A DNA stretch of 64,000 bases. Source: an uncultured Olsenella sp. Its GTDB lineage: Bacteria; Actinomycetota; Coriobacteriia; Coriobacteriales; Atopobiaceae. The DNA lies in the NCBI GenBank assembly GCA_949290055.1, contig CASEQJ010000002.1, positions 38,010 through 102,009 of the forward strand, given 5' to 3'. Below are positions 8,828-61,657 of the stretch, in pieces; positions within the stretch are counted from its first letter, which is position 1; each line of letters starts with the position of its first letter. The notes beneath the pieces are model-generated. The model was not told the origin of the DNA and did not search any database. It worked only from the letters and a program-made list of their open reading frames with translations. A program made the translations under genes and the position numbers.

Positions 8828-8848
8828 GCCGCACCCGCATTCCAGGAC

Positions 8849-10252
8849 ATGGTCGCGCGGCCCCTTCCCGCTTCTTGCGAGGAGGGGCCGTCAGCGCATA
8901 CGAAGCGAGGACGTCACGTGAACACTCTTCTGACCAACACCGCCGCCCAGCGCCGCGCTCCCGTGGCTCTTCTCGGCATTCTGATCGTTGTGGTTGCGCT
9001 CTTTGGCGCGCTGGCGCTGCCGGCTCCGCGTGCCGAGGCCATGGAGGCAGTCAAGTGCACCGGCCGCCCCAACTCCGAGGATGACCCCACGGCGATCATG
9101 GGCGCCACCGAGTCGCGCATCACCTTTGAGGCCAGCATCGCCGAGGGCGAGGGCGTCACGAGCCTCACCCTGCGCCTTCCCGAGGGAACCGGCTACAGCA
9201 ACCAGAATCTTGCCGTGACGCTGCTCACGGGGGACGACCTCATGACCAGAAACGAGCTCGACTACACCGAGACCATGGACGGTCAGAGTCTCACCCTCGA
9301 CTTTGCGGAGCCCATAACCCAGGCGGGTCACCTCAACGTCATGATCTACGACGTGTTCTTCCCCGCAGAGGGTGGCGAGATGCAACTCGAGGCCACCTAC
9401 GAACTGGCCGACGGCACCGAGAAGGACATCGAGGGCATTCCGTCCATTCCGGTCGAGGGGATCTCGACCACCGAGTCCCTCTCGCAGTGGCTCGAGGAGC
9501 AGCCCTGGGTCCAGGCGTGGAACTCCAACCGGTTCCTGCACCTCTTCTTTGACCCGGCGCTTCTCGTCACGAGCTTCCCGGTGGTGCTCACCGGCTTCTT
9601 CATGTCCGTCTCGATCGTGGCCGTGGCCTTCCCGCTGGCCATTCCCATGGGCCTCCTGCTTGCGCTCATGCGCATCTCCAAGCTGCGCCTTCTGCGCGGC
9701 ATTGCCACCACCTACGTCAATATCGTCCGCGGCACGCCGCTCTTCCTGCAGATCTACGTGGCCTTCTTCGGCCTGCCGCTCGCCGGCATCCAGATTCCCA
9801 ACTTCGTGCTGGGCGTCACGGTCATGTGCATGAACTCGGGTGCCTACATGTGCGAGATCTTCCGCGCCGGCATCCTCTCCATCAGCAAGGGCCAGACCGA
9901 GGCCGCGCGCTCGCTCGGCATGAACGGCGCGCAGACCATGTTCTACGTCATACTGCCGCAGATGTTCCGGATCGTGATTCCCAACCTCACGAGCGAGTTC
10001 ATAGTCCTCTACAAGGACACGTCGCTGCTCGCCGCCGTGGGCATAATGGAGCTCGTCATGTACGCGCGCACGATCGTGGCCTCCACCGGCTCGATCACGC
10101 CCTACATTGTGGCTGCCCTGTTCTACCTGGTGATCACGCTGCCGCTCTCCAAGGTCACGCGCCACCTGGAGGACCGCGTCCGCGGCCACCGCACCCGCAA
10201 GCACGCCGTCGAGCCTGAGGCGGCCTCCGAGGAGGGAGCCTCCCATGAGTGA
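8849..10252 (+). CDS. Amino-acid ABC transporter permease with an extra ~220-aa N-terminal extracytoplasmic domain
   Basis: The C-terminal half has the His/Glu/Gln/Arg/opine permease core ([24 protein letters not shown]). The N-terminal half has a signal/TM segment ([24 protein letters not shown]) followed by an unrecognised domain. An alternative GTG start at 8918 is plausible. Confidence 0.8.
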
Positions 10253-43940: not shown

Positions 43941-45242
43941 ATGCAGGAGATTCTCCACGCGCCCCACGAGCAGATCGAGCAGATCCAGCTCGAGGGCATC
44001 AAGAAGACCGTGATCGCGTGCTACGAGAACGTGCCGTTCTACAAGAAGAGCTTCGATGACGCCGGCTTTGACCCGTACTCGGTCAAGAGTCTCGACGACC
44101 TTCAGAAGGCGCCGTTCGTCACCAAGCAGGACCTGCGTGACAACTACCCCTACGGCATGTTTGCCACGCCGCTCTCCGAGGTGAAGGAGATCCACATGTC
44201 CTCCGGCACCACGGGCGTGGCGACGGTGGGCGGCTACACCCAGCACGACCTGGACATCTGGGGCGAGTGCTTCGCGCGCGGCATCGAGTACGCGGGCGGC
44301 GGCGCCGACGACGTCGTTCACGTCTGCTACGGCTACGGCCTCTTCACCGGCGGCCTGGGCGCGCACTACGGCGGCCTCTACTCCGGCGCCACCACGATTC
44401 CCATGTCCGCGGGCAACACCGAGCGCCAGATCCGCGTGCTCAAGGAGATGGGCTCCACGATCATCTGCTGCACGCCGAGCTACGCCATGCACATCGCCGA
44501 CACCGCCCTCGAGATGGGCATCGACCCGGCACGTGACTTCCACCTGCGCGCGGGCATCCACGGCGCCGAGCCCTTCAGCGACAACTTCCGTCGCGACCTG
44601 GAGCGCAAGCTCAACTACCACGTGCTCGACGTCTACGGCCTCACCGAGACCATGGGCCCGGGCGTGGCCATCGAGTGCTGGGAGCAAAACGGCCTGCACC
44701 TGGCCGAGGACCACTTCTACGCGGAGATCATCGACCCCAACACCGGCGAGGTCCTGCCCGACGGCGAGTGGGGCGAGCTCGTGCTCACCACCACCGACCG
44801 CGAGGCGTCGCCCGTGGTGCGCTACCGCACGCGCGACATCACGCGCATCCTGCCCGGCGAGTGCGCCTGCGGCTGCACCCACCGCCGCATTGACCGCATC
44901 CACGGCCGCACCGACGACATGCTCATAATCCGTGGCGTCAACGTCTTCCCGAGCCAGATCGAGGACGTCATGAAGACCTTCGACCAGATCTCGTCCTGGT
45001 ACCAGATCGAGGTCGACACCGACCACCGCTCGCTCGACATGGTCACCCTCAAGGCCGAGGTTAACCCCGGCTTCAACTTCGACTCCGTCGCCGCCGTCGA
45101 GCGCCTGCAGAAGGAGATGTCCGCGCGCCTCAAGACGGCCCTCTCCGTGGGCGTCAAGGTCAAGCTCGTCGAGCCCAAGACCATTGCGCGCAGCGAGGGC
45201 AAGGCCAAGCGCATTGTCGACCTGAGAAAGGGGATCCGCTGA
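43941..45242 (+). CDS. Phenylacetate-CoA ligase family (PaaK-like) adenylate-forming enzyme
   Basis: Starts MQEILHAPHEQIEQIQLEGIKKTVIACYENVPFYKKSFDDAGFDP. Contains the SSGTTG P-loop, YGLTE, and IRGVNVFPSQIEDV. A GGAGGG SD precedes ATG 43941. Confidence 0.85.
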   Translation: MQEILHAPHEQIEQIQLEGIKKTVIACYENVPFYKKSFDDAGFDPYSVKSLDDLQKAPFVTKQDLRDNYPYGMFATPLSEVKEIHMSSGTTGVATVGGYTQHDLDIWGECFARGIEYAGGGADDVVHVCYGYGLFTGGLGAHYGGLYSGATTIPMSAGNTERQIRVLKEMGSTIICCTPSYAMHIADTALEMGIDPARDFHLRAGIHGAEPFSDNFRRDLERKLNYHVLDVYGLTETMGPGVAIECWEQNGLHLAEDHFYAEIIDPNTGEVLPDGEWGELVLTTTDREASPVVRYRTRDITRILPGECACGCTHRRIDRIHGRTDDMLIIRGVNVFPSQIEDVMKTFDQISSWYQIEVDTDHRSLDMVTLKAEVNPGFNFDSVAAVERLQKEMSARLKTALSVGVKVKLVEPKTIARSEGKAKRIVDLRKGIR

Positions 45243-45670
45243 TGATTGACCAGATCACGGTTTTTCTGGAGAACGAGAAGGGCCGCATCGCGGCGCTCTG
45301 CCGCACCCTCGGCGACGCCAACATCAACATGGCGGCGCTCTCCGTGGCCGACACCACCGAGTACGGCATCGTCCGCATAATCTGCGGCGACACGAACGCC
45401 GCCCTCGCTGCGCTCGAGGCCGGCGGCTATCGCGCAATCAAGACCGAGGTCATGGCCATTGCCGTCCCGCACCAGCCGGGCGGCGCGGCCGACCTCCTCG
45501 AGAAGCTTGACGACCTCGACATCAACATCGAGTACTTCTACTGCTTCTCCACGACCGACGACCTCGCGATTCTTGCGCTCAAGATCGCCGACCCCGCGAG
45601 CGCCGCAGAGGCGAGCTGGGCCATTGAGAAGGCCGGCTTCCACGTCTTTGACCAGGACGAGGTCGAGTAG
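45242..45670 (+). CDS. ACT domain-containing protein (partner commonly found next to PaaK-like ligases)
   Basis: 142 aa with two ACT-like halves (ITVFLENEKGRIAALCRTLGDANINMAALSV...; VMAIAVPHQPGGAADLLEKLDDLDINIEY). Its start overlaps the upstream stop. Confidence 0.75.
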   Translation: MIDQITVFLENEKGRIAALCRTLGDANINMAALSVADTTEYGIVRIICGDTNAALAALEAGGYRAIKTEVMAIAVPHQPGGAADLLEKLDDLDINIEYFYCFSTTDDLAILALKIADPASAAEASWAIEKAGFHVFDQDEVE

Positions 45671-45700
45671 GGTCTCGCGCCACGACGATCTTTTTTGTCT

Positions 45701-45736
45701 GGGGCTGCCGCGTGATTGCGTGCGGCAGCCCCTTTT
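45701..45736 (+). terminator. Rho-independent terminator after the ACT gene
   Basis: GGGGCTGCCGC-loop-GCGGCAGCCCC followed by TTTT. Its 3' half is already part of repeat copy A. Confidence 0.75.
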
Positions 45737-45930
45737 CCTGTCGAGCGGGGGGCGAGTGGCGCCCGTTTTTCCCGCGAGTGGACAATTATGGAGATTCCCG
45801 TTTACTTCTGGCGGGGGAGCGGGCATACTAGCCAACGCACATTTCAGAAGGGCGCCCCCCGGCGCAGCCGAGCACATCACTTTTCAGGTTTCAGCGTGTA
45901 AGAGGTAAGGGCAAGAGACATGATCACCAA
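45722..45930 (+). repeat. Copy A of a ~210-bp duplicated non-coding leader module
   Basis: By manual alignment, the core 45790-45928 matches 49232-49370 at 129 of 139 positions without indels. A 64-nt run is identical (45861-45924 = 49303-49366). Weaker similarity extends back to 45722/49163. Confidence 0.9.
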
Positions 45931-46134
45931 CACCACCACCATATAAAACGTAATCAGTTTTCACTGTTGCCTTGGGGTGGCTCCATCTTGCGTGGACGCG
46001 CTGCTCCTTCGGCACCGGTGTGTGTTCTCGTGCGGTCCGTCGAGATCGTGGCGGACGTGCGTGCGAGGGAGGGATTCCCCAATGCGCCTGGGAAGCTATA
46101 AATTAGACACCAATCCTTCGAGAGGGGTGACGGT

Positions 46135-47796
46135 ATGGACAACGAGAAGACCGAGGCCGCGCAGGACGGAGCCGCAGAGCAGGGCGTCTCTCTGAGCAAA
46201 TTGCTCAAGCGCCTACGCGAGCAGGGAAGCATTGGCGCTGACGTCAAGTCGCCCGGGATGCACCTGATGCTCGCGGATGCCGGGCTCGTCGAGCGCGTCA
46301 CGGACGAGGAGGGCGCGAAGACCTGGCAGGTCACGGAGCTCGGCCGCAAGTGGGGCATCAGCCAGAGGCCCTCGACCGACGGGCACGGCTCGTACCCCGT
46401 GTACGATGAGCGCGGCGTCCGGAAGGTCCTTGAGCTCTTGTCGGCCGACGTCGACGGCTCGGCCTACGCTGCCGCCAGGGAGCGCGTCGCAGCCGCAGCC
46501 AAGCCCGACAAGCCCCGCTTCCCCGATTCCATCGACGACGGGAACGCGCTCTGTCGCCGCGGCGAGCGCCTCGTGCCCGACTTCGTCGAGCGCGCCGCGC
46601 CGCTCATTGGCCGCAACCTGAGCGCAGGGCCGGATCTCGACGCCCTTCCCAGCATGTCAAGTCTCTACGACCACGACCACGACCGTCCGGCCCTTCTCTT
46701 GTGCGCCAGGACGCCGTACTTCAAGGCCGGTTACTACGGCAGGGACAAGCGGGGTCGACTCCTCGAGAAGAAAAACGGCCCGTCCTGCACCGTCTCGCTT
46801 GACGCCAACCAGCTCAGGCGGGCCCGTGCGGCATATCCGGACAGCGATCTCTATGTCTATGTGCACTGGGAGCGCCTTGCCATGGGCGGCAGGCGCGTCG
46901 AGCCGCTCGAGGGCGTGTGGGTGGCACGCCTTGCCGACCTTGGGGACAAGGTCGATCAGGGCCTGCTCGCTCACTCCGGCCCCGTTGAGAGCAAGGTGCA
47001 CGACGGCGAAAGCCTTGACATTTACCTCATCAGCCTGCTCGACCCCGTCTTCACGGAGCTCTGGTCGCGCAGGGGCAAGGACGTCCTCGCCCCCATGGAG
47101 CCTGACGCGCCCGCCTCGTGCAAGCGGCTGATAGCGGAGGCGTCCATGGGAAGCCTCCGCGACGCCCTGTCCAAGGGGTGGGAGGTGCTCGAGAAGGGCG
47201 TACAGGAGATGGACTGCGACGAGAAGTGCGTCATCGCGCCGGACTTCTCGCCCAACGAGGGGGGCAATCAGGACAAGGCGAAGTACGACACGTCCCTCTC
47301 CCGTCTCTACTACTTCCTTCGCTACGGGTACGGCTATGCCTATGAGTACTACCTCATGTGGCGTGATCTGCTCGAAGACATGGACCGACAGAACCTTGGG
47401 AAGGAGAAGTTGGACGTCCTCTCGCTCGGGTGTGGCAACGGCGTCGACCTCTGGGCGCTCCGCTCTCTGTTGGCAGAGCGCGGAGAGTCCGACCGACTTA
47501 CGGGCTACGTGGGCGTTGATATTGCTGACTGGTCCGACCTCTGCTTCCCGCTCCCAGAGGGGGAGGGCTATCGGTATCGGTGGGGGTGCAGTGCCGCCGA
47601 TTACCTGGAGAGCGAAGAGGCGCGCAAGCACAGGTACCCCTGCGCGCGCGTCATCGTCCTCCCAAAGAGTCTCGGGGAGATGAGCGAGGACGAGATTAAG
47701 AGGGTTGGTGAGAGCATCTTCCAGTACAACGAGCACTGCTGGCATTACCTGTGCGTCTGCCCACCCCATGGCTACAAGGACAGGGAGGGAATCTGA
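46135..47796 (+). CDS. Hypothetical 553-aa multidomain protein with a C-terminal class-I SAM-methyltransferase-like motif
   Basis: A GAGAGGGG SD precedes the ATG. Motif I is LDVLSLGCGNGVDLWAL, followed by an acidic post-I residue (YVGVDIADW). The N-terminal ~100 aa look HTH-like, and the central ~250 aa are unrecognised. Confidence 0.7.
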   Translation: MDNEKTEAAQDGAAEQGVSLSKLLKRLREQGSIGADVKSPGMHLMLADAGLVERVTDEEGAKTWQVTELGRKWGISQRPSTDGHGSYPVYDERGVRKVLELLSADVDGSAYAAARERVAAAAKPDKPRFPDSIDDGNALCRRGERLVPDFVERAAPLIGRNLSAGPDLDALPSMSSLYDHDHDRPALLLCARTPYFKAGYYGRDKRGRLLEKKNGPSCTVSLDANQLRRARAAYPDSDLYVYVHWERLAMGGRRVEPLEGVWVARLADLGDKVDQGLLAHSGPVESKVHDGESLDIYLISLLDPVFTELWSRRGKDVLAPMEPDAPASCKRLIAEASMGSLRDALSKGWEVLEKGVQEMDCDEKCVIAPDFSPNEGGNQDKAKYDTSLSRLYYFLRYGYGYAYEYYLMWRDLLEDMDRQNLGKEKLDVLSLGCGNGVDLWALRSLLAERGESDRLTGYVGVDIADWSDLCFPLPEGEGYRYRWGCSAADYLESEEARKHRYPCARVIVLPKSLGEMSEDEIKRVGESIFQYNEHCWHYLCVCPPHGYKDREGI

Positions 47797-47811
47797 GACA
47801 ACGACCTTGCC

Positions 47812-48138
47812 ATGCGGGAGAGCGTTTCCCTCCTGCTCGAGCACGTGGGCCTCAGGGTTGGGGTCGACGACGCGATCAGGGGCGAGAAGCGCCGCGCGGA
47901 CAGGCGCATCTCCCAGCTCACCGACGAGGGCTGGTGGGGGCACCTGAGCATGGACGACGAGGATTGTCTCAAGCGGGTGCTGGGCGAGGAACTTCCCCCA
48001 TGCTGCCCGTATCACGGGGCGACGACGTGCACGTGGAAGGAGCGCGAGAAGAAGGTGCGCTGCCCGATCGAGAAGAGCCCCATCCTGCGCGGCTGGTTCC
48101 CCTGCTACCGCGTCTACTATCTCGACGGCCTGTGCTAG
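47812..48138 (+). CDS. Hypothetical Cys-rich small protein (108 aa)
   Basis: The C-terminal half reads CCPYHGATTCTWKEREKKVRCPIEKSPILRGWFPCYRVYYLDGLC (7 Cys). It starts 15 nt after the upstream stop. The SD is weak. Confidence 0.5.
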   Translation: MRESVSLLLEHVGLRVGVDDAIRGEKRRADRRISQLTDEGWWGHLSMDDEDCLKRVLGEELPPCCPYHGATTCTWKEREKKVRCPIEKSPILRGWFPCYRVYYLDGLC

Positions 48139-48165
48139 CAGCGCGCCCGCGCGAAAGGAGCGACC

Positions 48166-49113
48166 ATGATCATAAGCGCGAGCCGGCGCACGGACATACC
48201 GGCGTTCTACGCTGAGTGGTTCGCGAACCGCGTCCGCGAGGGGTTCGTGTGCGTGCGCAACCCCATGAACGCCCACCAGGTGAGTCGCGTGAGCCTCGAC
48301 CCGGCCCTTGTGGACTGCATCGTCTTCTGGACCAAGAACCCCGCTCCCATGCTCGAGCACCTCGACGCCTTCGCGGCTTACCCGTACTACTTCCAGGCCA
48401 CGCTCACCGGCTACGGCCGCGACGTCGAGGGCAACCTTCCCGACAAGCACGAGGTCCTTCTCCCCGCCATGAAGGAGCTCGCGCACAGAATCGGCCCCGA
48501 GCGCGTCGTCTGGCGCTACGACCCCATTCTCTTTAACGAGAAGTACACGCCGCAGTACCACCTGCGCGCGGTGCGCGAGATCGCGGAGGAGCTCGAGGGC
48601 TGCACGGAGAAGTGCGTCATCAGCTTCGTTGACACCTACCAGCGGAACCGCAAGAGCATTGAGACGCTCGGCGCGCGTGACGACCTGCCCTCCGAGCGGG
48701 AGTTCCGCGCCTTTGCGACCGAGCTCGCGGACACGGTGCGCGCCCACGGCATGGCGTGCGCGAGCTGCGCCGAGCGGGTGAACCTCGCCGACTGCGGCAT
48801 AAAGCACAACTGCTGCGTCGACCGCGCCCTGATCGAGCGCATTCTGGGCTGTCCCCTGGACGTCAAGAAGGACAAGACGCAGCGTCCGGAGTGCGGCTGC
48901 GTGACGAGCATTGACGTGGGCACCTACAACACCTGCCCGCACGGTTGCCGCTACTGCTACGCCAACTTCAGTCCCGAGTCCGTCGAGCGCAGCCGCGCCG
49001 CCTACGACCCGGCCTCCCCGCTTCTGTGTGATCGCCTGCGCGAGGACGACGTCGTGACGGACCGCAAGGTCAAGCGGCTCTCCTCGGGTCAAGCCACGCT
49101 GCCGTTCGCATAG
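48166..49113 (+). CDS. DUF1848 domain protein with a C-terminal CxxxCxxC cluster (radical-SAM-like)
   Basis: MIISASRRTDIPAFYAEWFANRVREGFV...IVFWTKNP is the typical DUF1848 N-terminus. The C-terminus reads ECGCVTSIDVGTYNTCPHGCRYCYAN. A strong AAAGGAG SD is present. Confidence 0.8.
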   Translation: MIISASRRTDIPAFYAEWFANRVREGFVCVRNPMNAHQVSRVSLDPALVDCIVFWTKNPAPMLEHLDAFAAYPYYFQATLTGYGRDVEGNLPDKHEVLLPAMKELAHRIGPERVVWRYDPILFNEKYTPQYHLRAVREIAEELEGCTEKCVISFVDTYQRNRKSIETLGARDDLPSEREFRAFATELADTVRAHGMACASCAERVNLADCGIKHNCCVDRALIERILGCPLDVKKDKTQRPECGCVTSIDVGTYNTCPHGCRYCYANFSPESVERSRAAYDPASPLLCDRLREDDVVTDRKVKRLSSGQATLPFA

Positions 49114-49162
49114 GGCCGCGCGCTGTCGCTCTTCCCGCCTGAGGGCCGTCGCACACGAGCGT

Positions 49163-49372
49163 GCGGCGGCTCCCTTTTCCTGCCAGACAGGGGTCGAACG
49201 GTACCCGTTTTGCCCGCGAGCGGATTTTTTTGGAGATTCCCGTTTACTTCCGGCGGGGGAGTGGGCATACTATCCACCGCGTAATTCAGAAGGGCGCCTC
49301 CGGGCGCAGCCGAGCACATCACTTTTCAGGTTTCAGCGTGTAAGAGGTAAGGGCAAGAGACATGATTACCAA
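49163..49372 (+). repeat. Copy B of the ~210-bp duplicated leader module
   Basis: See copy A. It begins in the 3' half of the terminator-like hairpin GCCGTCGCAC...GTGCGGCGGC (49145-49170). Confidence 0.9.
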
Positions 49373-49821
49373 AGAATCCATTTTCTAACTCAATAGGCTT
49401 CCATCGACGCTTCTGAGGGTCGTGCTGTGTCCCGCGCGGACGCCGAGCCCTCTCAAAAGTGCCGGTGGATTCTCATGTGGCTGCGTCGCATGAGCTGGCG
49501 TTCTTTGACAAACGAAGAGCGGGAGTGTCCCCTTGTCTCTTTTGGGTAGCCGCCTCGAGCGTGCCGTGACCCAACAACAGGAGAGCCGACGGGCGAGGAC
49601 CCTGGGAGAACAGGGGGCACGGACAGAGACCGCGGGCGTTGGTGCAGGAAAGCGCGGGAGCGGAGAGGAGGATTCGCGTGGGGCGGCGGTCCCCGGCACA
49701 AGCCCACCAACGGCCAGCAGCAATCAGAAAGCGGCAAATCACACGTCCACGGGCAAGCAGGAGCGGCAAGGGGAGCAGACGAATGGTCGGACGGCTCTCC
49801 GTCGCAGAAAGGAAGGTCAGC

Positions 49822-50718
49822 ATGACAATGCACGGTTCCGTTCTAGACGAGCGCATAGAGGGGGCGTTCTCGTTTGTCCCCACTCCCGAGCTTATCGTCG
49901 TAAGCCTGCGCATTGCGGCGGACATGCCTCTCGAGCGCTACTGCCTCGGGGGCGCCGCGCTTGCGGCATGCCAAGAGGTCATGGATTCGGACCTGGTTGG
50001 CCTTGAGGTCAAAACAAACGGTTCTCACCTGCCGTCTCAGTTGAGCTCGGTCCGCGAGGCCGTGGGCGTTGCGCTCCTGCTGGACGAGGCCTCCCAGAGC
50101 TCACGGGCTCGCGCCAAGACCCTCGCGAACCTGCGCGACCAGCTGATACGCGCCCTTCTCGCTCCGGTCGAGCGCTACGTCGAGCGACACCGCAGGGGGT
50201 GGGACCGGCGGCAGGAGGGCAGCGCCGGCTCACGCGCGAGACGGGCGTTTTGCTACGACGTGAGCATTCTCACGACGCAGCGAAGGGGGCCAAGGCCCAC
50301 CCCTCGCGAGGCTTATGCGCTGCTCTGCGCGCTCGCCTTTGCCGACGACGCGCACATTCGAGAGGCAATAGCGACCCTGGGAGGCCTCGACGGTCGCGAC
50401 GCGCTCGAGGCGCAGGCTCGCTACGAAGAACATTCGCGCTTCTTCTCCGGCTGCCAGTCCGCAAGCGCCGCGAGCGCATACAACAGCGTCGTCTATGCCG
50501 ACCATGGCGAGCCCGAGGGAATCGACGACCTCATTGAGGCGTGCGCGGGCGCGACGGAGCAGCCCGAGCCGATCTCCGGGGACACCGCGGCCGCGTTTCT
50601 CCACCTCTACCTCGAACCCATTGCGCTCATGGAGCGCTTTGGGGGAGGCTGCGCGCCCGGCGACCTAATCGGGAGCAGCCCCAACCCCACGCTCACCAAG
50701 CGAATCCTGGCGGCGTGA
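49822..50718 (+). CDS. Hypothetical protein (298 aa)
   Basis: An AAGGAAGG SD lies 6 nt before ATG 49822 (MTMHGSVLDERIEG...). No recognised domain. An in-frame TTG at 49639 would add a very basic extension, which I consider unlikely. Confidence 0.55.
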   Translation: MTMHGSVLDERIEGAFSFVPTPELIVVSLRIAADMPLERYCLGGAALAACQEVMDSDLVGLEVKTNGSHLPSQLSSVREAVGVALLLDEASQSSRARAKTLANLRDQLIRALLAPVERYVERHRRGWDRRQEGSAGSRARRAFCYDVSILTTQRRGPRPTPREAYALLCALAFADDAHIREAIATLGGLDGRDALEAQARYEEHSRFFSGCQSASAASAYNSVVYADHGEPEGIDDLIEACAGATEQPEPISGDTAAAFLHLYLEPIALMERFGGGCAPGDLIGSSPNPTLTKRILAA

Positions 50719-50761
50719 CCCGTCGCCCCTCTCGCTCGTTCACCCATACGTCGAAGGGATC

Positions 50762-52126
50762 ATGCACATGCACAACACCACCGTCGTCACCGAATCCACC
50801 CGCGCCCCCTACCGCGGCTCGACGATCGTCGGCCGCGACCGCTCCCTCGAGACCGACTCTTTTCTGACGGGACTCAACGACAACGTGCTCGTCATAGGTC
50901 CCTCTGGCGCGGGCAAGACGCGCCACGTGCTCAAGCCCAACCTGCTCCAGACGGGACCGAGCTTCATCGTGCTCGACACGAAGGGCACACTCTGTGCCGA
51001 CATGGCGCCGGCGCTCGTGCGGGCGGGCTATACCGTCGAGCGGCTCGACTTCGCCGGCGTCTGCGACCGGCCCGCGTCGCTTCCCGAGGGCGTGAGAAAC
51101 GTCGGGTACGACCCGCTCGTCTTCATTCGGCGCAACGCTGACGGCGGCGTGAACCAGCAGGACGTCATCTCCGTCGCCAGCGCGCTCTGCCCCGTCGAGA
51201 ACGGTGACGAGCCGTTCTGGGACCACGCCGCCTCGAACCTGCTCACCGCGCTCATCGCCTACGTCGTCGAGGAGCTGCCCCAGGAGGAGCAGACCTTCGC
51301 CGCGGTGATCGAGCTCGACGAGCACCTGCACGACGGCGCGACGTTTCGCCTGCTCGAGGAACTCGAGCTCACAAGTCCTCGGAGCCTCGCGGGCTCCACG
51401 TACCGCCGCTACGCCGCCACGCGGGAGTCCGAGCGGACGAACGCGAGCATAGTCGGCATAATCGCCGAGAAGCTCAGGTGCCTGGGCTTTGACGGGGCAC
51501 TTAACCTCTACACTGCCCCCGATCGGGTGGACTTTGCCCGCTACGGCCACGAGCGTCGCGCTCTGTTCGTGACGATCAGCGACGTCGACCGCTCGCTCGA
51601 CTCGCTCACGAGCCTGTTCGTCGCCCAGGCGTTCGGCGCGCTCATACGCGAGGCCAATCGCTGCCCGGGCGGTCGGCTGCCCCAGCCTGTGCGCCTCTTC
51701 CTTGACGACTTCGCGAACCTCTACATAGAGAACATCGACGACATCCTCGCCGTCGTTCGCAGCCGAGAGATCTGGTGCACGCTTCTGCTGCAGTCGGTGA
51801 ACCAGCTCGAGGCGCGCTACGGCCGCTCGCGTGCCATGTCGATCATGGGCAACTGCGACACGCAGCTCGTCCTGGGCTTCCAGGACCTCGACACGGCGCA
51901 CTGCTTCTCCGAGCGCGCGGACCGCATGCCCAAGACCCTGCTCGAGATGAGCCCGGAGCGCTCCTGGCTCTTCGTGCGCGGTCATGCCGCCGAGGAGATC
52001 GAGTCCTACCACCTCGAGGAGCACCCGCGCTACTTCGAGCTCCGCGAGGGCGAGGGCGCGGGCCTCGGGCGAGAAGAGCCCGCGCCCGCCTCGAGCGACT
52101 TCGACGACCCCGAGCTCCCACGCTAG
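50762..52126 (+). CDS. VirD4/TraG-like type IV coupling-protein-family ATPase lacking TM segments
   Basis: Walker A VIGPSGAGKTRHVLKPNLL, Walker B VRLFLDDFANL, and the T4CP-typical SREIWCTLLLQSVNQLEARYG. There is no hydrophobic N-terminal anchor. The start is 50762 or, with better SD spacing, 50768. Confidence 0.75.
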   Translation: MHMHNTTVVTESTRAPYRGSTIVGRDRSLETDSFLTGLNDNVLVIGPSGAGKTRHVLKPNLLQTGPSFIVLDTKGTLCADMAPALVRAGYTVERLDFAGVCDRPASLPEGVRNVGYDPLVFIRRNADGGVNQQDVISVASALCPVENGDEPFWDHAASNLLTALIAYVVEELPQEEQTFAAVIELDEHLHDGATFRLLEELELTSPRSLAGSTYRRYAATRESERTNASIVGIIAEKLRCLGFDGALNLYTAPDRVDFARYGHERRALFVTISDVDRSLDSLTSLFVAQAFGALIREANRCPGGRLPQPVRLFLDDFANLYIENIDDILAVVRSREIWCTLLLQSVNQLEARYGRSRAMSIMGNCDTQLVLGFQDLDTAHCFSERADRMPKTLLEMSPERSWLFVRGHAAEEIESYHLEEHPRYFELREGEGAGLGREEPAPASSDFDDPELPR

Positions 52127-52166
52127 CGCCTCTTCACGTCAGGAACCCCAACAGAAGGGACATCTC

Positions 52167-52763
52167 ATGAGCCACCAGATCCTCAGCCCCCACACCATGC
52201 GCGAGACCTCGCGCGGTATCTCGCTCACGAGCATTTACGACGAGATGCTCGCTCGCCGTGAGCTCTCCGTGACCGGCGAGGTGACGCAGGCCATGGCGTT
52301 CGACGTCTGCCAGCAGCTGCTGCAGCTCGAGCATACCGACCCCGAGGCAGAGGTCACGCTCTACGTGGCGAGCCCGGGCGGCAGCGTCTCGGCCGGCCTC
52401 GCCATAGTGGACACCATGCGCACGATCTCCTGCCCCGTGCGCACCGTGTGCCTGGACACGGCCGCGTCCATGGGTGCGGTCATTTTCGTTTGTGGCGACC
52501 GCCGGGAAATGTTCCCGCACGCCGAGCTCATGATCCACGACCCGCTGATCCAGAACGCGGGCGGCTCGGCGCTCTCCGTGCAGGAAACGAGCCGCCGCCT
52601 CATGGGCCTGCGCCGCACCCTCAGCCAGATCCTGGCCGAGCGCAGCGGCCTCTCCGTCAAGCGCGTGCAGACGCTCACCGCGCGCGACACGTTCCTCACC
52701 GCCGAGCGTGCCTGCGAGCTGGGCTTTGCCGACGCGATCGTGAGCCCGCGCAAGGCTGCGTAG
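52167..52763 (+). CDS. ClpP-fold serine protease family protein
   Basis: 198 aa with YVASPGGSV, the catalytic Ser context DTAASMGAVIF, the His context LMIHDP, and the Asp context LTARDTFLTAERACELGFADAIV. Confidence 0.8.
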   Translation: MSHQILSPHTMRETSRGISLTSIYDEMLARRELSVTGEVTQAMAFDVCQQLLQLEHTDPEAEVTLYVASPGGSVSAGLAIVDTMRTISCPVRTVCLDTAASMGAVIFVCGDRREMFPHAELMIHDPLIQNAGGSALSVQETSRRLMGLRRTLSQILAERSGLSVKRVQTLTARDTFLTAERACELGFADAIVSPRKAA

Positions 52764-52798
52764 GGACGCACATGTTCCCAGAGGAAGGAGGTGTGGAA

Positions 52799-53101
52799 AT
52801 GGCAGAGAACGACCAGCCGACGTTTTTTGAGGCGAACCCCACGTACGCGACGCTCGTCTTCGCGGCGCAGGACGCCCGCGAGCGCCTCGTGGAGGCGCTC
52901 TCCGGTGAGCTCGACCGGCGCCTGACGCTGGAGGGCGACCCCGAGTACGAGCGCTACGGGCGTCCCAGCAACGACGAGTACCTCGCTGACTACGTTCACG
53001 CGCTGTGGCGCGTTCGGGAGTACGAGAACGAGCACCCGGACGAGGCTCGCGCCTGCGCGGAGCGGTTCGGCGCTGCGGCGCGCGTGGAGGGAATCGAGTG
53101 A
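52799..53101 (+). CDS. Hypothetical small acidic protein (100 aa)
   Basis: A strong GGAAGGAGG SD is present. Starts MAENDQPTFFEANPTYATLVF. No recognised domain. Confidence 0.55.
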   Translation: MAENDQPTFFEANPTYATLVFAAQDARERLVEALSGELDRRLTLEGDPEYERYGRPSNDEYLADYVHALWRVREYENEHPDEARACAERFGAAARVEGIE

Positions 53102-53197
53102 TTGGAGGAAGCCAAGCGACCTGAGCACGACCAACCAGGCATGCAAGCGTGAACGAGGTTGACGGCGCAGCCGTCTCAGAGAGAAAGAGGGAGTTGC

Positions 53198-54148
53198 ATG
53201 AACGGCACCACTATTCCTTTCGAGAAGAACGACGAGGTCAAGGGCGGGCTCTCAGCAGCCGCCGTCAGGCGCTATGAGCCCCTGGTCACGAACGGGACGA
53301 TTCGCTCGTTCAATGGCTTTCTTGCCGGCCTGTGCTGCCCCGAGGGAGAGATCGGGACGTTTGCCCCTGGCGTGAGGTACCTCTGCGAGCGCCTGGACGG
53401 GGCGAGTCACGCCCTGCTCGAAAGGAGCGGGTTCTTCTCGCTCGAGACGGAGGAGGCGCGCGCCGGGCTCTTGGAAAGCTCGCCGGAGGCGACCCTCGGC
53501 ATGGGTCTGCAGACGTCCTGTCTCGTGCTTGGTACGCAGGTCAAGAGCTCCATGGAGAAGTGCGAAGCCGTGCGTGCAGAGTGGCTCGCCGCAGACGACC
53601 TTGACGAAGTCGACGACTTCAACGACGAGGACGAAAACCTCGAGTGCCTTCCCGTCAGCGAGCTCTCGGTCATTGTCGGCCTCGTTCCGGACGGAATGGC
53701 GCAGGCGCTTCTCGCCGCCTTCCACACCATCGTGCACGACCCCGCGCTCGAGGCGCTTCTCGACGTCATGGTGTCGCTTATCGACGGGGACATTGAAAAG
53801 GAGGAGGGCGGCTGGTTCATAGAGACCGACGTCGCCCTTGGCGTTGCGTTCATGTGCGAGCAGTTCCTCCGCTTCGCCGAAAGCCACCGCGGCGAGCAGA
53901 GTCTGGTTGAAATCAGCGAGGACCGCCTTAACCTCCGCGACGGGGGAGACCCGGTGCTTGACGGCCTCTACGACCATGTGGGGGACGACGGCTGGTTTGC
54001 CTCGCTTTCCGAGGACGAGCGTCGCCGCCTCGAGGCGTGGTCGAGCGGCGAGGGGTTCGAGGCGTGCTTCGCCCTGACGCTCCTCACGATCGGCATGCTC
54101 GCGGGCAACGTCCGTGACAACGCCGCCGTTCGGGTGGTCAACCGCTAG
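53198..54148 (+). CDS. Hypothetical protein (316 aa) with an acidic central patch
   Basis: An AGAGGGAG SD precedes ATG 53198. It has a D/E-rich central segment (AADDLDEVDDFNDEDENLE). No recognised domain. Confidence 0.55.
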   Translation: MNGTTIPFEKNDEVKGGLSAAAVRRYEPLVTNGTIRSFNGFLAGLCCPEGEIGTFAPGVRYLCERLDGASHALLERSGFFSLETEEARAGLLESSPEATLGMGLQTSCLVLGTQVKSSMEKCEAVRAEWLAADDLDEVDDFNDEDENLECLPVSELSVIVGLVPDGMAQALLAAFHTIVHDPALEALLDVMVSLIDGDIEKEEGGWFIETDVALGVAFMCEQFLRFAESHRGEQSLVEISEDRLNLRDGGDPVLDGLYDHVGDDGWFASLSEDERRRLEAWSSGEGFEACFALTLLTIGMLAGNVRDNAAVRVVNR

Positions 54149-54225
54149 CGGCGCCCTCTCCGGGGCGGGTGGGCCCCGCCCCGGATTCGGTGCGTCCGAT
54201 CAACGCAACGTCAAGGGAGCCGCGA

Positions 54226-56664
54226 ATGGAAATCGGAGAGATCCTCGACCGCTACGCCGTCTGCGCCGACGTGCTCGGTCGAAAGAAGGACTCGAGGAGG
54301 TCCAGGGACCCAAACGCCTACCCAGCCTACGAGCAGGAGGGCTACTCGACGGCGTGGTTCTTCAAGGAGGCGGGCGACGGCGCGGGCCTGAACGACCTCA
54401 CGCGCGCCTTTCTCGGTGACGCCTCGGCGCGCTCGCGCCTTCGCTTTGGCGCGGCGGAGGCGGCCTCGTTCGAGGGTCACCTGCTCGAGGGTGACCACCC
54501 GCTCAACGCCAGCCAGCGCCGGGCCGTTGCCCGTGCGCTCGAGAGCGACGTCTCGCTCGTGCAGGGGCCTCCGGGCACCGGCAAGACCAAGACGATCCTC
54601 AATATGGTCTCGTGCATGCTCGCGCGCGGGGCGACGGTCGCCGTGGTCGCCAACAACGGCAAGGCGATCGACAACGTTCGCGAGCAGGTCGAGGGGTGGG
54701 GACCGGGCTCGGGTGCGGGTCCCAACCAGCGGCGCATGAACGAGTGCTATGCCCGTCTCGGCAGGAAGGACCTTCGACGGGGGTGGGTCAGGCGCCACCC
54801 GGACGCCCCCGAGTGCCTCCGCTTTGCCGATTGCGGCTGGGAGCCCACCGTGCGCGCCGAGGTCTTTCTCGCCAGCTATCCCTTTGTGACGAGCACGATC
54901 CACTCGCTCAAGAAGTGCTTCGCCGACGGCCGCAGCCACCAGTACGACTACGTGATCATGGACGAGGCGTCGCAGTGCAGCCCGCTTCTGGGCCTCATTG
55001 CCATGAGCGCGGCGCGCCACCTCGTGCTCGTGGGGGACGACGAGCAGCTTCCGCCGATTCACTCCGAGGAGCAGGACCTCGAGCTGCGTTCCGCCCTCGC
55101 CGAGCGGGGGCTCGACGAGATCGGGGACGCGCGCTATGCGCTCGCCGACGCCGAGACGGGCACCGGCAGGAGCGTCCTTCTCGCCATGAGGCTCGCCCTC
55201 GGCGACGACCTGCCGAGCACGCTTTTGAACGAGCACTACCGCTGCCACCCGGGAATCATCGGCTTCTGCACCGAGGCGGTGTACGCGCCCGTGGGAAAGG
55301 AGCTGCAGGTTCGCACCCCGGACGACGGCCGGGGCGTGAGGGTCCCGATTCGCGTGCGGTGGTTCGAGGGGAACTACTGCGAGCGCGTGCGCCCCGAGGA
55401 CGGGGGCGAGCGGGGGTACCACAAGCTTTCGCGCACCAACGCGCGGCAGCTCGAGGTCTTCATGCGCGAGGAGTGGCCGGAGCTGCGGCGACGCATGGGG
55501 GAGCGCCGCCCGCCGAGCGTCTGCGTGCTCTCGCCGTATCGCGGGCTGCTCGCAGAGCTGGGGGAGCGCCTTGCTCGTGAGGGCGTCGACCCCGCGGAGA
55601 CGACCGAGGGGACGGGAGGCGACCCGCTCGTGGCTCCGGAGGTTCCCGCGCTCACCATTCACAAGTCCCAGGGTCAGGAGTTTGACATGGTCTACCTGCT
55701 CCCGGGTGAGGACGGTTCGTGGGAGTGGCCCTGGACGGAGGCGAGGTCGCTGATCAACGTGGCCGTCTCGCGGGCGAGGCGCGAGCTCGTGATTGTGGCG
55801 TCGTCGTGCCTCATGGGCGTCGACGTTCAGGTGGCGCTCGTGGGGGAGGACCGCGTGGTCGGACCCTACCAGCGCGACATGAGCGAGGAGGAGCGGGAGC
55901 GCCGCAAGCGGCGCGAGCTGTACCTGCAAAAGCTCGTCGACTACGTGCGCGAGCGCAACGACCCCGCACGCGACTCCGACGCGCCGAGCGGTTTCCCGGA
56001 GAGCTCGTATGACTACGGGTTCCACCGCACGGCTCTGCGTTCCGTCTTCGACGTCGTGGCGCGCCTTCGCAGGGAGGCGCCGCATAGGTGGGGCGCGGAC
56101 GACTGGGCCACCGAGCGGGCCCTCGAGCGCGCGTTCGAGGGGGTCGACCTCGCGGGGCGCGGGCTCGGCGTCAGGCGCGGCGTCAGGCTCGCGGAGTGTT
56201 TCGACGCGAGCGACGAGCGGCTCGCAGGTGCGGGCGACCCGGCGCGCGTGAGGGAGTTTCTCGCGACGGACGCGCACTTCGACTTTGTGGTCCATGAGCT
56301 GGCAACGGGGCGCATGGTGCTCGCCATCGAGGTCGACGGCGCGCCGCACCGCACGCTCAAGGGCAAGGCCACCGAGCAAAACTGGGGGGAGAAGGTCCGT
56401 GAGCTGAGGCTCAGGCGGGAGAACGACGCGTTGAAGGACGCCATGGCTCGGGCGCTCGGCGCTCGGGTGCTCGCCACCAACCGACGCGCGGAGCTCGAGC
56501 GCTGCGAGGTGGAGCGGCCCGCGTTCACCCTGCTGCGCCTGCCCACCGACGGTTCGTGCGCCTTCGAGGTCGAGGCCCTGTTCGACGGAGCCCCCGCCGG
56601 CGCGGCAGACGACTTCGTGACAATTGAGGAGCTGCTCGACGAGACGGGGGGACGGAGGTTCTGA
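54226..56664 (+). CDS. Upf1/DNA2-like SF1 helicase fused to a C-terminal Vsr/DUF559-like endonuclease domain
   Basis: Helicase motifs: LVQGPPGTGKT (I), YVIMDEASQ (II), LVLVGDDEQLPP (III), YRCHP, TIHKSQGQEFD (V) and NVAVSRARRELVIV (VI). C-terminal DFVVHELATGRMVLAIEVDGAPHR (D...ExDG..H) is nuclease-like. The start is at MEIGEILDRY. Confidence 0.85.
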   Translation: MEIGEILDRYAVCADVLGRKKDSRRSRDPNAYPAYEQEGYSTAWFFKEAGDGAGLNDLTRAFLGDASARSRLRFGAAEAASFEGHLLEGDHPLNASQRRAVARALESDVSLVQGPPGTGKTKTILNMVSCMLARGATVAVVANNGKAIDNVREQVEGWGPGSGAGPNQRRMNECYARLGRKDLRRGWVRRHPDAPECLRFADCGWEPTVRAEVFLASYPFVTSTIHSLKKCFADGRSHQYDYVIMDEASQCSPLLGLIAMSAARHLVLVGDDEQLPPIHSEEQDLELRSALAERGLDEIGDARYALADAETGTGRSVLLAMRLALGDDLPSTLLNEHYRCHPGIIGFCTEAVYAPVGKELQVRTPDDGRGVRVPIRVRWFEGNYCERVRPEDGGERGYHKLSRTNARQLEVFMREEWPELRRRMGERRPPSVCVLSPYRGLLAELGERLAREGVDPAETTEGTGGDPLVAPEVPALTIHKSQGQEFDMVYLLPGEDGSWEWPWTEARSLINVAVSRARRELVIVASSCLMGVDVQVALVGEDRVVGPYQRDMSEEERERRKRRELYLQKLVDYVRERNDPARDSDAPSGFPESSYDYGFHRTALRSVFDVVARLRREAPHRWGADDWATERALERAFEGVDLAGRGLGVRRGVRLAECFDASDERLAGAGDPARVREFLATDAHFDFVVHELATGRMVLAIEVDGAPHRTLKGKATEQNWGEKVRELRLRRENDALKDAMARALGARVLATNRRAELERCEVERPAFTLLRLPTDGSCAFEVEALFDGAPAGAADDFVTIEELLDETGGRRF

Positions 56665-56796
56665 CACCTTCCCGTCCCCCTGTCACGGGGCTTTGACATA
56701 CAAACGTTGTATGGGAACCCATACTCTTATGTATTTTACCGCTGGGCTCTCGCGCTCTACCATGGACGAGAAGAACAGCGTCAGAGGAGGTCTCAC

Positions 56797-57009
56797 ATGG
56801 TCTTTGGCATGGGTCCCATGGAGCTTGCCGTCATACTGCTCGTCGTGCTCGTGATCTTTGGGCCCAAGAACCTGCCCAAGCTGGGCTCCGCCATTGGCAA
56901 GACGGTCAAGAACGTGCGCGACGGCATGGAGGAGGGCTCCGGCGACTCGGAGCCCGAGTCCGTGCCCGTGAGCGAGTCCGAATCCGTCGACGAGCCCGTC
57001 CAGCACTAG
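56797..57009 (+). CDS. tatA: Twin-arginine translocase subunit TatA/E
   Basis: MVFGMGPMELAVILLVVLVIFGPKNLPKLGSAIGKTVKNVR. An AGAGGAGG SD is present. Confidence 0.9.
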   Translation: MVFGMGPMELAVILLVVLVIFGPKNLPKLGSAIGKTVKNVRDGMEEGSGDSEPESVPVSESESVDEPVQH

Positions 57010-57020
57010 CCCTTCCTCCT

Positions 57021-57084
57021 GCGCCCCCGGACCTTTCCCGCCGGGGGCGCTTTCTGTTAATTGGGGACTGTCCCCAATTAACAG
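57021..57084. terminator. Two consecutive perfect hairpins between convergent tatA and the LysR gene
   Basis: GCGCCCCCGG...CCGGGGGCGC (57021-57050) is followed by TTTCTG. CTGTTAATTGGGGA-CTG-TCCCCAATTAACAG lies at 57054-57084. Confidence 0.75.
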
Positions 57085-57935
57085 AGCTCGCCGAGAAGCG
57101 CCACGGCGCGCTCCGCGAGCGGGGAGAGGGTGCGGTCGGCCTTCCAGACGACGGCGGCGCGGCTCTCGAGGTCCTTCTCGGCAAGCGTCTTTATGTAGCA
57201 GGGGCCGGTGTCGCATACGGCGAGCATGGAGCGCGGCGCGAGCCCGACGCCGAGGCCAGCCGCGGCGCAGGAGCAGGTCGTGCGCGCGTCCTCGGTGACG
57301 CAGAAGGGCGCGCGACCCAGGGCGTGTGCCGTGCGGGCGTCGCAGACGATCGGCACGTCCTCAAGCTGGGCGAGAAGAACGGTGAGCTCGTCGCCGCGCT
57401 CGAGCGCGGGCGGCATGACCGCCACGAGCGGCTCGGTCGGGGCGTAGCGCGTGCGCAGGCCCTGGGTGGAGAAGGGCGTGCGCACGACGCCGGCCTCGGC
57501 AATGCCGCTGGTCACGAGCTCGAGCACCTCGGGGACGCTGCCCTCGCGCAGCTCGAGCGAGACGTCCGGGGCAAGCTGGGCGAGCTCTGCCAGGCGCGCG
57601 GACGGCGCGAGCCCCGCGACGGAGTCGCAGACCGCGAGGCAGAGGGTGCCCGTGAGGCCCTTGCCCACGCTCGAGACCTCGCGCGCGGTGGCCGTCGCCA
57701 TGGCGAGAATGCGCGTCGCGCGCTCGTGGAGGAGCCGCCCCGCCTCGGTGAGCGTGACGCCGCGCGGCCCGCGGCGCACGAGCTGCGTGTCCAGCTCGCG
57801 CTCGAGTTCGCGGAGCTCGTAGGAGAGGGGCGGCTGCGAAATGTGCAGCCTACGCGCGGCGGCCGTGATCTGGCCCTCCTCGGCTATGGCGACGAAGTAC
57901 TCGAGTTGTTTGAGATTCAAAAGACGCCTCCCCAC
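57078..57935 (-). CDS. LysR family transcriptional regulator
   Basis: N-terminal HTH LNLKQLEYFVAIAEEGQITAAARRLHISQPPLSYELRELE. Confidence 0.9.
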   Translation of the reverse strand: MGRRLLNLKQLEYFVAIAEEGQITAAARRLHISQPPLSYELRELERELDTQLVRRGPRGVTLTEAGRLLHERATRILAMATATAREVSSVGKGLTGTLCLAVCDSVAGLAPSARLAELAQLAPDVSLELREGSVPEVLELVTSGIAEAGVVRTPFSTQGLRTRYAPTEPLVAVMPPALERGDELTVLLAQLEDVPIVCDARTAHALGRAPFCVTEDARTTCSCAAAGLGVGLAPRSMLAVCDTGPCYIKTLAEKDLESRAAVVWKADRTLSPLAERAVALLGELC

Positions 57936-58025
57936 GTGGCTGCGAAATACTCGAATTGTATCTCGCGGCGGCGGGGGAGGCGCCCTTCTCGTCGATATGA
58001 CCCGGCTCGTGCCCGTCGGGTGGCG

Positions 58026-61177: not shown

Positions 61178-61440
61178 CGTGCCTCCCTTCCTCGCCTCTA
61201 GCGTATCGCAGCTGGCTGCCGGCGGGCGCTCGATTTAGGCGGTCGGGCGAATCCGGCGGATAACGCGCTCGATCAAGCACAACATTCTATATGCGCAGGT
61301 GAAAATAACGCGCTTGTACGATTGAGCGCATTATTATGTGCGGCGGCGCGGGCGGGCGAGAAGAACGCGCAGCCCCGCATGTTTCAGGTTTGTTTTTCGC
61401 CCTGTGCGCCGCGGGTCCGCCGTGCTAGGCTACCCACACA

Positions 61441-61599
61441 GATAGAGGAGCGGACACGAAGAGCCGTGGGGGAGCCGGCAGGCACAGATCCCCGGGGAGG
61501 CGAGGTCCGCCGAACTGTCGCGTCGGGCGCGGCGCGGCGGTGGGCCCGCGGGAAAGACCCTCGGGACTGTCTGCGAGAAGAACTCGCAGGTGCGCTATC
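61441..61599 (+). promoter_or_regulatory. Lysine riboswitch (L-box) in the lysA leader
   Basis: P1 pairs GATAG...CTATC. The conserved blocks are AGAGGAGCG (consensus AGAGGCGC), GGCGAGGTCCGCCGAAC (consensus ...CGCCGAAG), and GGGACTGTCT followed by the hairpin GCGAG-AAGAA-CTCGC and GGTGCGCTATC. Lysine biosynthesis genes lie downstream. Confidence 0.8.
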
Positions 61600-61657
61600 C
61601 TTGCCGGACGCACGTCCGCCCCGGGGCCGCGCACCTGCACGGCGAGCGAGGGGTGTC

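Follow-up and report, generated by a model that had tools for sequence, protein, structure and literature searches.

Leader-bounded cassettes with a ClpP paralogue and a soluble VirD4/TraG-type ATPase between ACT and tatA of an uncultured Olsenella sp.: a candidate defence island

What is encoded by the roughly 11-kb interval that separates an ACT-domain gene from tatA in an uncultured Olsenella sp.? The interval lies in a 64,000-nucleotide stretch of contig CASEQJ010000002.1 (assembly GCA_949290055.1, positions 38,010 to 102,009), which is referred to as the window and has a high GC content (~66%). The bacterium is a gut member of the Coriobacteriales, and proteins at least 90% identical are labelled Thermophilibacter sp. 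by NCBI. An original prediction, made from the sequence of the window, described the interval as an accessory, defence-island-like hotspot of nine genes that carried one composite system or two co-regulated systems. The flanking genes were verified as a paaK-like gene and the ACT-domain gene on one side and tatA and a LysR regulator gene on the other. The island open reading frames (ORFs) were all found at their predicted positions on the + strand, where they form two blocks (block 1, 46135-49113; block 2, 49822-56664). The gene number had to be lowered to eight, as g1 and g2 are one frame split by a TGA. We consider it probable, with considerable reserve, that the interval is an island of leader-bounded cassettes in which a repeated leader would serve as a shared regulator and as a recombination handle, and in which g4, the ATPase gene g5 and the ClpP gene g6 (the trio) would form an ATPase-ClpP proteolytic switch or effector. 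The island genes are likely to be anti-phage or anti-plasmid genes. It is in the module of ClpP, an ATPase resembling type IV coupling proteins (T4CP) and g4, and in the leader that this module shares across genera, that we see something new, and less in the presence of a defence island.

Each block is preceded by a copy of a 214-bp direct repeat (86.9% identity, blastn E ~1e-70; Table 1), and these two are the only copies in the window. As had been predicted, each copy is combined with a terminator-like hairpin. The two terminator stems differ in sequence, yet both are able to pair. Copy 1 contains the terminator tail, another small hairpin that has a T-run, and promoter-like hexamers (TTTACT at 45801 and CATACT at 45824, 17 nt apart, read by eye), which are followed by a 5' hairpin, the core motif, a Shine-Dalgarno site and the start of a mini-ORF. 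The 3' third of the leader is nearly invariant between the copies and ends four codons into this 8-codon mini-ORF. Different from an integron-type array, the island has no integrase, and its cassette joints are 214-bp direct repeats with a promoter-like site instead of attC hairpins.

The core motif (~34 nt) has the consensus AGCAyAT-(10-20 nt)-AGCGnGTrAGAG and lies just upstream of a Shine-Dalgarno site, after which comes a mini-ORF of 5-11 codons. A regular expression of the core matched 74 of 87 sources and 0 of 30 shuffled loci. The core is kept across genera, in L003, L005, L008 and the Collinsella loci (related loci are cited by number). In Collinsella and Enorma-like loci it stands before the trio, and in L003 and L005 it also stands before neighbouring cassettes. 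Overall, in L003, L005 and L091-L096, it is found in front of the trio, genes for single-stranded DNA-binding proteins (SSBs), ShosA-ShosT, a PsyrT fusion and g9-type helicases. The core copies lie ~90-100 nt downstream of sigma-70-like hexamers, also read by eye, and directly 3' of a recurring short hairpin whose sequence varies. Moreover, a mini-ORF is readable at the same position in 9 of the 11 leader copies compared; in L041 and L017, the two Collinsella copies, only an ORF of 3 codons at a displaced position is seen. When metagenomes were scanned for the core motif, ten further loci from the same clades were found. The leader motif is clade-limited.

Two other elements were observed upstream of cassettes in related genomes. 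The first, GAGACAG-TTGTGCCAGGTCAAT-CTGTCTC, has 7-bp inverted arms and a 15-nt loop and is sometimes tandem. In Enorma-like genomes, it is located at cassette boundaries just upstream of the leader promoters (L005, 15050-15110, 18230-18320 and 18620-18650; L003, 15560-15620; also L091, L093 and L096). It is absent from the island of the window, and it could be a recombination site or a protein-binding site. The second is a block common to L099 (~5600-5700) and L101 (~6440-6540), CCTTGACAGnCGCATACCnnCTnCCCGGGnAAGGG...GCGCGATGACnGCCCTCG, which stands upstream of these trio operons in place of the leader core and hints at an alternative leader specific to the clade.

The island was also compared within the species, by using contigs whose ACT protein was 100% identical to that of the window. 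The ACT-tatA interval was found in three states. In six contigs (L105, L106, L108-L110 and L114), ACT is followed by a single leader and then by g4, and the genes of block 1 (cassette 1) are absent. The join in L105 is exact, with positions 1-1542 equal to window 44390-45930 and positions 1329-10151 equal to window 49159-57994. Thus, its single 214-bp leader aligns to both copies of the window. Four contigs (L107, L112, L115 and L117) possess cassette 1, the large gene of which is intact in L107, L115 and L117, the ones that cover g1/g2. Finally, in L111, tatA directly follows ACT, and a leader copy is downstream of tatA. The trio is present in every same-species contig that covers the block 2 region. 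Cassette 1 is therefore a separable two-gene module that is gained or lost on its own, with the junction inside the leader repeat, and the varying content beside an identical ACT protein is that of a hotspot, as had been proposed. The ACT-tatA spacer of L111 (916-1110) contains two tandem ~60-nt hairpin units (GGTTCACAGCTTCCGGACGCTT...CCGGAAGCTGTG) whose sequence is absent from the window, and the tatA of L111 is only 85% identical.

The trio opens block 2 (cassette 2). G4 matched no model of Pfam, PADLOC, NCBIfam or PHROG. An iterated hidden Markov model (HMM) joins it with proteins of Enorma and L005 and with the Collinsella protein hyp348 (E 6e-38) into one family. G5 matched T4SS-DNA_transf (PF02534, E 4e-32), TrwB_AAD_bind (PF10412, E 8e-19) and TraG-D_C (PF12696, E 3e-19) of Pfam. 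It has no N-terminal membrane anchor (maximum 19-residue hydropathy of 1.19), and hydropathy revealed no transmembrane segment in any island protein. Coriobacteriales are rich in g5 homologues (317 clusters), and a relative is encoded by at least 590 genome stretches. Of 102 homologues, all 102 possess the Walker A and hhhDDF motifs. G6 matched CLP_protease (PF00574, E 3e-49) but stayed below every ClpP cut-off of NCBIfam (TIGR00493, 146 versus 309 bits; PRK00277, 171 versus 249 bits). The Ser, His and Asp motifs are kept in 92-96 of 97 g6 homologues. No AAA+ gene was found in the island.

The association of ATPase and ClpP is close, as ClpP adjoins the ATPase in 84 of 85 loci in three gene orders (A-B-C, A-C-B and C-A-B). 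In Collinsella ClpP precedes the ATPase, and in the window, Enorma and L005 the ATPase precedes ClpP. The distant trio loci, which are L099 (labelled Thermophilibacter), L101 (Olsenella) and L103 (from a further relative), retain a protein of 250-350 amino acid residues that is encoded before or between the two.

In related genomes, the trio and the leader are associated with genes of known defence systems. For instance, in L003, the trio is followed by a fusion of the N-terminal module of g1 with DarT (PADLOC DarT) and then by NADAR, and a second leader is followed by the same module fused to full-length PsyrT (E 5e-217). In L005 and L096, the leader is followed by SSB, ShosA (E 4e-59), a ShosT-like phosphoribosyltransferase (PRTase) protein and then a helicase that has 48-53% identity to g9 along its full length. 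In Olsenella L101, an S1CSD-TOTE-2 protein stands between the trio and a helicase 43% identical to g9. In L091, the leader precedes SSB, a methyltransferase-like protein (29% identical to residues 312-513 of g1) and DUF1848. Overall, in at least 4 genus-level groups, g9-type helicases, fusions of the g1 N-terminal module with effectors and toxin-antitoxin defence systems are repeatedly found right next to the trio. PsyrTA and ShosTA are phage-defence toxin-antitoxin systems (bioRxiv 10.1101/2022.05.11.491447; PMC12961424), and UG25, a methyltransferase-reverse transcriptase fusion associated with DUF1848, belongs to the defence-associated reverse transcriptases (PMC9226505). Given these parallels with DarT-NADAR, PsyrT, ShosTA and UG25, the neighbourhood is of the defence type. 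The pairs g1/g2 with g3 and g8 with g9 of the window each have recurring counterparts. A competence or DNA-uptake regulon (SSB, "DprA" and a DEAD helicase with PRTase) was considered and rejected, because the DprA-like gene is ShosA and the helicase-PRTase gene is PsyrT.

Cassette 1 begins with a large gene. G1 (46135-47796) and g2 (47812-48138) are in one frame with the TGA between them. The relatives carry TGG (Trp) at this position and encode a single protein of 669-690 residues. For instance, strain L107 (97.8% identical) has TGG and an intact 669-residue allele, and the homologues P0121-P0123 have 673-690 residues and C-termini 95% identical to g2. Thus, cassette 1 comprises two genes, one for a protein of ~670 residues and one for a DUF1848 protein, and the former carries a nonsense mutation (TGG to TGA) in the strain of the window. 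The large protein has a winged-helix-like N-terminus (residues ~12-103), an alpha/beta domain (residues ~115-310) that is also found as stand-alone proteins of 160-250 residues, a Rossmann region resembling S-adenosylmethionine (SAM)-dependent methyltransferases (residues ~400-555) and a Cys-rich tail. The predicted SAM-methyltransferase motif scores below threshold (E ~1e-3): the matches of the C-terminal region to Methyltransf_34, Methyltransf_31 and mRNA_G-N7 are weak (E 1e-3 to 9e-3) and cover motif I only. Foldseek searches with the structure models returned only non-significant, generic Rossmann matches, and profile searches of the PDB found nothing for g1/g2, g3, g4 and g5. G3 matched RTasDUF1848 of PADLOC (E 2e-45) and is 82% identical to the DUF1848 partner of the other methyltransferase-like protein, that of L091. 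Within the species, one g1/g2 allele is only 60-68% identical and stands beside a 98%-identical DUF1848.

The trio of the window is followed by three further genes. G7 has relatives in L005, L007, L008 and L092 (60-64% identical), and no domain was found in it. G8 contains 59 Asp and Glu versus 23 Lys and Arg residues and is the fastest-evolving gene of the island, with 88-92% amino acid identity and indels between strains versus 97-99% for g5 and g9; library scans found no homologue or domain. Its acidity and fast evolution would fit a DNA mimic, an inhibitor or a specificity partner of the g9 helicase. A role of g8 as a TOTE cold-shock-domain protein was rejected for lack of similarity. G9 had been called a helicase-nuclease. 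The helicase part holds, and the DUF1848, VirD4-type ATPase, ClpP-fold and helicase calls are all solid in Pfam. The C-terminal extension of g9 (~270 residues) resembles a PD-(D/E)xK nuclease in appearance, but its nuclease-type matches are weak (DUF2726, E 0.012; MTES_1575, E 0.13), both at a ...FDFVVHE...AIEVDG..H motif. In addition to the helicase of L101, full-length g9 relatives are found near the trio in L095 and L096 (48-53% identical).

Table 1. Coordinates in the window of the island genes and of the elements of the repeated leader
Feature	Start	End	Strand	Description
g1/g2	46135	48138	+	One multidomain-protein gene, in-frame TGA at 47794-47796
g3	48166	49113	+	DUF1848 protein, C-terminal CxxxCxxC; Pfam E 2e-104
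g4	49822	50718	+	All-alpha protein of the g4/hyp348 family; first gene of the trio
g5	50762	52126	+	Soluble VirD4/TraG-type (T4CP-like) ATPase; Walker A at residue ~47
g6	52167	52763	+	ClpP paralogue; Ser-His-Asp motifs AASMG, MIHDP and RDTFLTA intact
g7	52799	53101	+	Acidic protein of 100 residues; accompanies the trio in some genera
g8	53198	54148	+	Very acidic protein of 316 residues, pI 4.2
g9	54226	56664	+	Upf1-like superfamily 1 (SF1) helicase (AAA_11/AAA_12), E 2e-26
Terminator-like hairpin 1	45701	45732	+	3' of the ACT gene; 14-bp stem, then TTTTCC; 3' half within leader copy 1
Terminator-like hairpin 2	49143	49172	+	3' of g3; overlaps leader copy 2
Leader copy 1	45718	45930	+	214-bp direct repeat
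Leader copy 2	49159	49372	+	Promoter-like hexamers at 49243 and 49266
Core motif, copy 1	45871	45904	+	AGCACATCACTTTTCAGGTTTCAGCGTGTAAGAG, then GT of the Shine-Dalgarno site
Core motif, copy 2	49313	49346	+	Pattern match
Mini-ORF 1	45920	45946	+	MITNTTTI-stop, 8 codons, sequence reading
Mini-ORF 2	49362	49388	+	MITKESIF-stop, 8 codons, sequence reading

How might these parts function together? If the island consists of leader-bounded cassettes, the leader would act in two ways, as a shared regulatory switch for joint expression of the cassettes and as a homology arm for their exchange. The trio would be a cytosolic ATP-dependent proteolytic machine. In this machine, g5 would be a hexameric T4CP-like motor, descended from proteins that recognise DNA-protein transfer intermediates, that selects the substrate and feeds a dedicated ClpP. 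Possible substrates are a protein of an invader, a labile antitoxin and a repressor such as g4, and proteolysis would either destroy invader components or release or induce the adjacent effectors. The pairs of g1/g2 with DUF1848 and of g8 with g9 would be effector-partner or toxin-partner pairs that act on nucleic acids. A more specific proposal, which we put forward only tentatively and hold to be rather improbable as a whole, is that the soluble VirD4/TraG-type ATPase has become the dedicated partner of ClpP, which would make it a new, non-AAA+ class of Clp motor, and forms with g4 an invader-sensing switch that induces a regulon of exchangeable defence cassettes, all marked by the leader and its mini-ORF. 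In that case, foreign DNA-protein complexes would trigger degradation of a repressor, an antitoxin or the pilot protein of the invader.

If true, these proposals would add an undescribed and widely conserved module to the immune or regulatory machinery of bacteria, in Coriobacteriales of the human gut, and would suggest that a motor of the DNA-translocase lineage is able to drive ClpP. The cross-genus leader would be a sequence tag for finding further cassettes as well as a model for co-regulation and integrase-free swapping of defence genes by homologous recombination.

A number of results weigh against the cassette island with a proteolytic switch. The counts of co-occurrence are biased, because the trio or the leader served as the bait for retrieving the loci. 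The promoter is a reading only, as its hexamers, with a score of 8 of 12, do not reach the threshold of the scan. The fold of the whole leader RNA is not significant (z = 0.05); with no Rfam match at the gathering threshold, chance-level matches only at E up to 10 and a negligible consensus fold, a structured RNA was rejected as the identity of the leader. The leader motif and the g4 HMM were both undetectable in L099, L101 and L103, the three most remote of the trio loci that were inspected. The structure model of the g4 family (29 sequences) is all helices with a predicted local distance difference test (pLDDT) score of 41.7, and that of a full-length g1/g2 homologue has a pLDDT of 45.1; both are of low confidence. 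The contact between g5 and ClpP is putative, and an "LGF" ClpP-docking loop in g5 was rejected because of its variability (LGF, LGL, LAF, LSF, LSS and others). Moreover, apparent Rosetta-stone fusions of ClpP with the ATPase (P0028 and P0029) and of g4 with ClpP (P0173, P0178 and P0193) were artefacts of assembly or frameshift, with out-of-frame low-complexity linkers or internal deletions or duplications, and were not used. Finally, the trio of Collinsella stands alone at a fixed site, which fits housekeeping as well as defence.

As an observation on metagenome proteins, P0156 and P0224 are also among the apparent fusion or duplication proteins, the kinds seen including a g4-ATPase fusion and an internally duplicated g4. 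The fusion-like proteins that were inspected are frameshift or misassembly artefacts and could mislead domain-fusion analyses.

The last of the points against the cassette island leads to the main rival explanation, which we regard as unlikely. It holds that the trio is a lineage-specific module of housekeeping or stress proteolysis, made up of a ClpP paralogue, an unusual ATPase and an adaptor, with no defence role, and that defence cassettes merely collect beside it at an insertion-tolerant site that comes with a strong, portable promoter and leader. In ~78 Collinsella loci, the trio occupies one syntenic site with no adjoining defence genes and is conserved as strongly as the flanking housekeeping genes. 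Its presence in all same-species contigs that cover block 2 and the lack of PADLOC matches for g4 and ClpP point in the same direction. Thus, the description of the interval as accessory applies to the strain-variable cassette 1 but not to the lineage-conserved trio. However, one and the same leader core stands in front of the trio and of the defence cassettes, the helicases, effector fusions and toxin-antitoxin systems recur beside the trio in several genus-level groups as given above, and the ATPase derives from coupling proteins of DNA transfer and not from AAA+ unfoldases.

The other readings are each contradicted by specific results. It is quite improbable that the island is a decayed integrative conjugative or mobilisable element whose coupling protein, SSBs, methyltransferase and helicases are former transfer or leading-region genes. 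Outside the lineage, g5 is most closely related to CD1115 coupling proteins of Firmicutes plasmids, SSB genes occur in related loci, and transposase fragments lie near L005. However, g5 lacks the anchor that is needed for docking on a secretion channel, and relaxase, VirB4 and mating-pore genes, which are present beside a true CD1115 member, were found neither in the window nor in more than 100 related loci, from which integrase and att duplications are also absent. In agreement with the original prediction, no tRNA was found by a scan of the window, and profile scans of the island proteins with Pfam, NCBIfam and PHROG revealed no integrase, transposase or relaxase domain. A foreign origin by composition was rejected, as the GC content of the island and that of its third codon positions (GC3) equal those of the flanking genes. 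In addition, the intact motifs of all 102 ATPase homologues and the fixed position in Collinsella argue for a maintained host function rather than a conjugative remnant.

There is still less reason to believe that all island genes are one composite system that acts only as a whole. The genes are on the same strand, with short gaps within the blocks and the same leader before both. However, cassette 2 persists without cassette 1 in the six same-species contigs described above, the large gene of cassette 1 is nonsense-mutated here with cassette 2 intact, the trio is alone in Collinsella, and the methyltransferase-like and DUF1848 pair of L091 is under another leader with no trio in a contig of 8.8 kb. 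Of the predicted alternatives, one composite system or two co-regulated ones, the composite thus fails on the separable cassette 1, whereas the shared leader is real and extends across genera. Finally, it is scarcely credible that the island is what remains of a prophage or phage satellite whose head-maturation protease would be ClpP and whose packaging motor would be the ATPase, since g6 matches head-maturation protease families of PHROG and NCBIfam (E 2e-36 and 4e-27) but scores higher on cellular ClpP models (171 versus 95 bits), capsid, portal, terminase and integrase are lacking, 6 of the 9 proteins have no PHROG match, and the leader pattern, for which a phage origin was rejected, has 0 matches in 2.9 million viral contigs.

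Two further features of the window lie beyond the island. Between the convergent tatA and LysR genes is a near-perfect 23-nt inverted repeat (57046-57092; GGCGCTTTCTGTTAATTGGGGAC / GTCCCCAATTAACAGAGCTCGCC), which is probably a bidirectional terminator. A lysine riboswitch (Rfam RF00168, 66 bits, E 4e-15) at 61435-61605 on the + strand overlaps the start of the + strand ORF 61322-62905. In the related strain L115, the riboswitch is followed by Orn_DAP_Arg_deC, DHDPS and DapB, which are genes of the diaminopimelate/lysine pathway. This riboswitch is an ordinary one without relation to the island.

How does the island compare with known systems? By the models of PADLOC, NCBIfam and Pfam, no described system can be assigned to the trio, g7, g8 or block 1, which agrees with the original prediction, in which the island could not be placed in any described family. 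Similar to MkoA of Mokosh, g9 has the helicase core (E 9e-37), but it matches MkoA/MkoC in this core only, and no PLD domain was detected in it. No DUF4011 of Hhe/Nhi was detected in g9 either; its score with Hhe (NF042953) is 60 bits versus a cut-off of 2000, and its match to Nhi (E 7e-4) covers ~50 residues. As a link to TOTE conflict systems, the Olsenella orthologue of g9 follows an S1CSD-TOTE-2 protein, but g8 lacks a cold-shock, TPR or TBP domain. DarTG, PsyrTA and ShosTA occupy equivalent leader-preceded positions in the relatives, and some of their toxins share the N-terminal module of g1. They are absent from the window, where g1/g2 has a methyltransferase-like domain and a DUF1848 partner instead. 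Pairing of DUF1848 with a protein that has a methyltransferase domain (UG25) or a methyltransferase-like one (cassette 1) is common to both; different from UG25, no island protein has a reverse transcriptase domain in Pfam or PADLOC. Apart from its role as an accessory of UG25 reverse transcriptases, DUF1848 is not known from other contexts, and the pair with the methyltransferase-like protein would, if the proposals hold, be a lead on its function.

CapH/CapP of CBASS and ImmR/ImmA of ICEBs1 are switches of a protease and a repressor that induce defence or mobile-element genes. The likeness to the island is one of idea only, in that a protease would be encoded in the operon that it controls and a conserved cis-element precedes the regulated cassettes. 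Different from these metalloproteases, which act on helix-turn-helix repressors, the island has a ClpP, an ATPase and a helical protein. Moreover, g4 has no recognisable DNA-binding domain, and the conserved element of the island is in the transcribed leader. ClpXP and ClpCP are ATP-dependent proteases whose roles include the degradation of antitoxins and regulators. Similar to their ClpP, g6 possesses the ClpP fold, an intact Ser-His-Asp triad and an N-terminal loop region and is encoded beside a ring-type ATPase. Their ATPases, however, are AAA+ unfoldases, whereas g5 is of the FtsK/VirD4 lineage, g6 is below the cut-offs, and no docking motif was identified.

The coupling proteins of the CD1115 family, 28-34% identical to g5, are the closest counterparts of the motor. 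Similar to them, g5 contains an NTPase domain with Walker motifs, an all-alpha insertion and TraG-D_C, and its score with conju_CD1115 (NF045973) is 243 bits, which does not reach the cut-off of 250. Different from g5, which has no membrane anchor and is paired with a ClpP paralogue, the CD1115 proteins are ~114 residues longer at the N-terminus and are encoded among PcfB, VirB6 and VirB4 with no ClpP nearby. A T4CP-like domain has also been proposed as the DNA sensor of a defence protein, NsnA of Menshen (PMC12065111).

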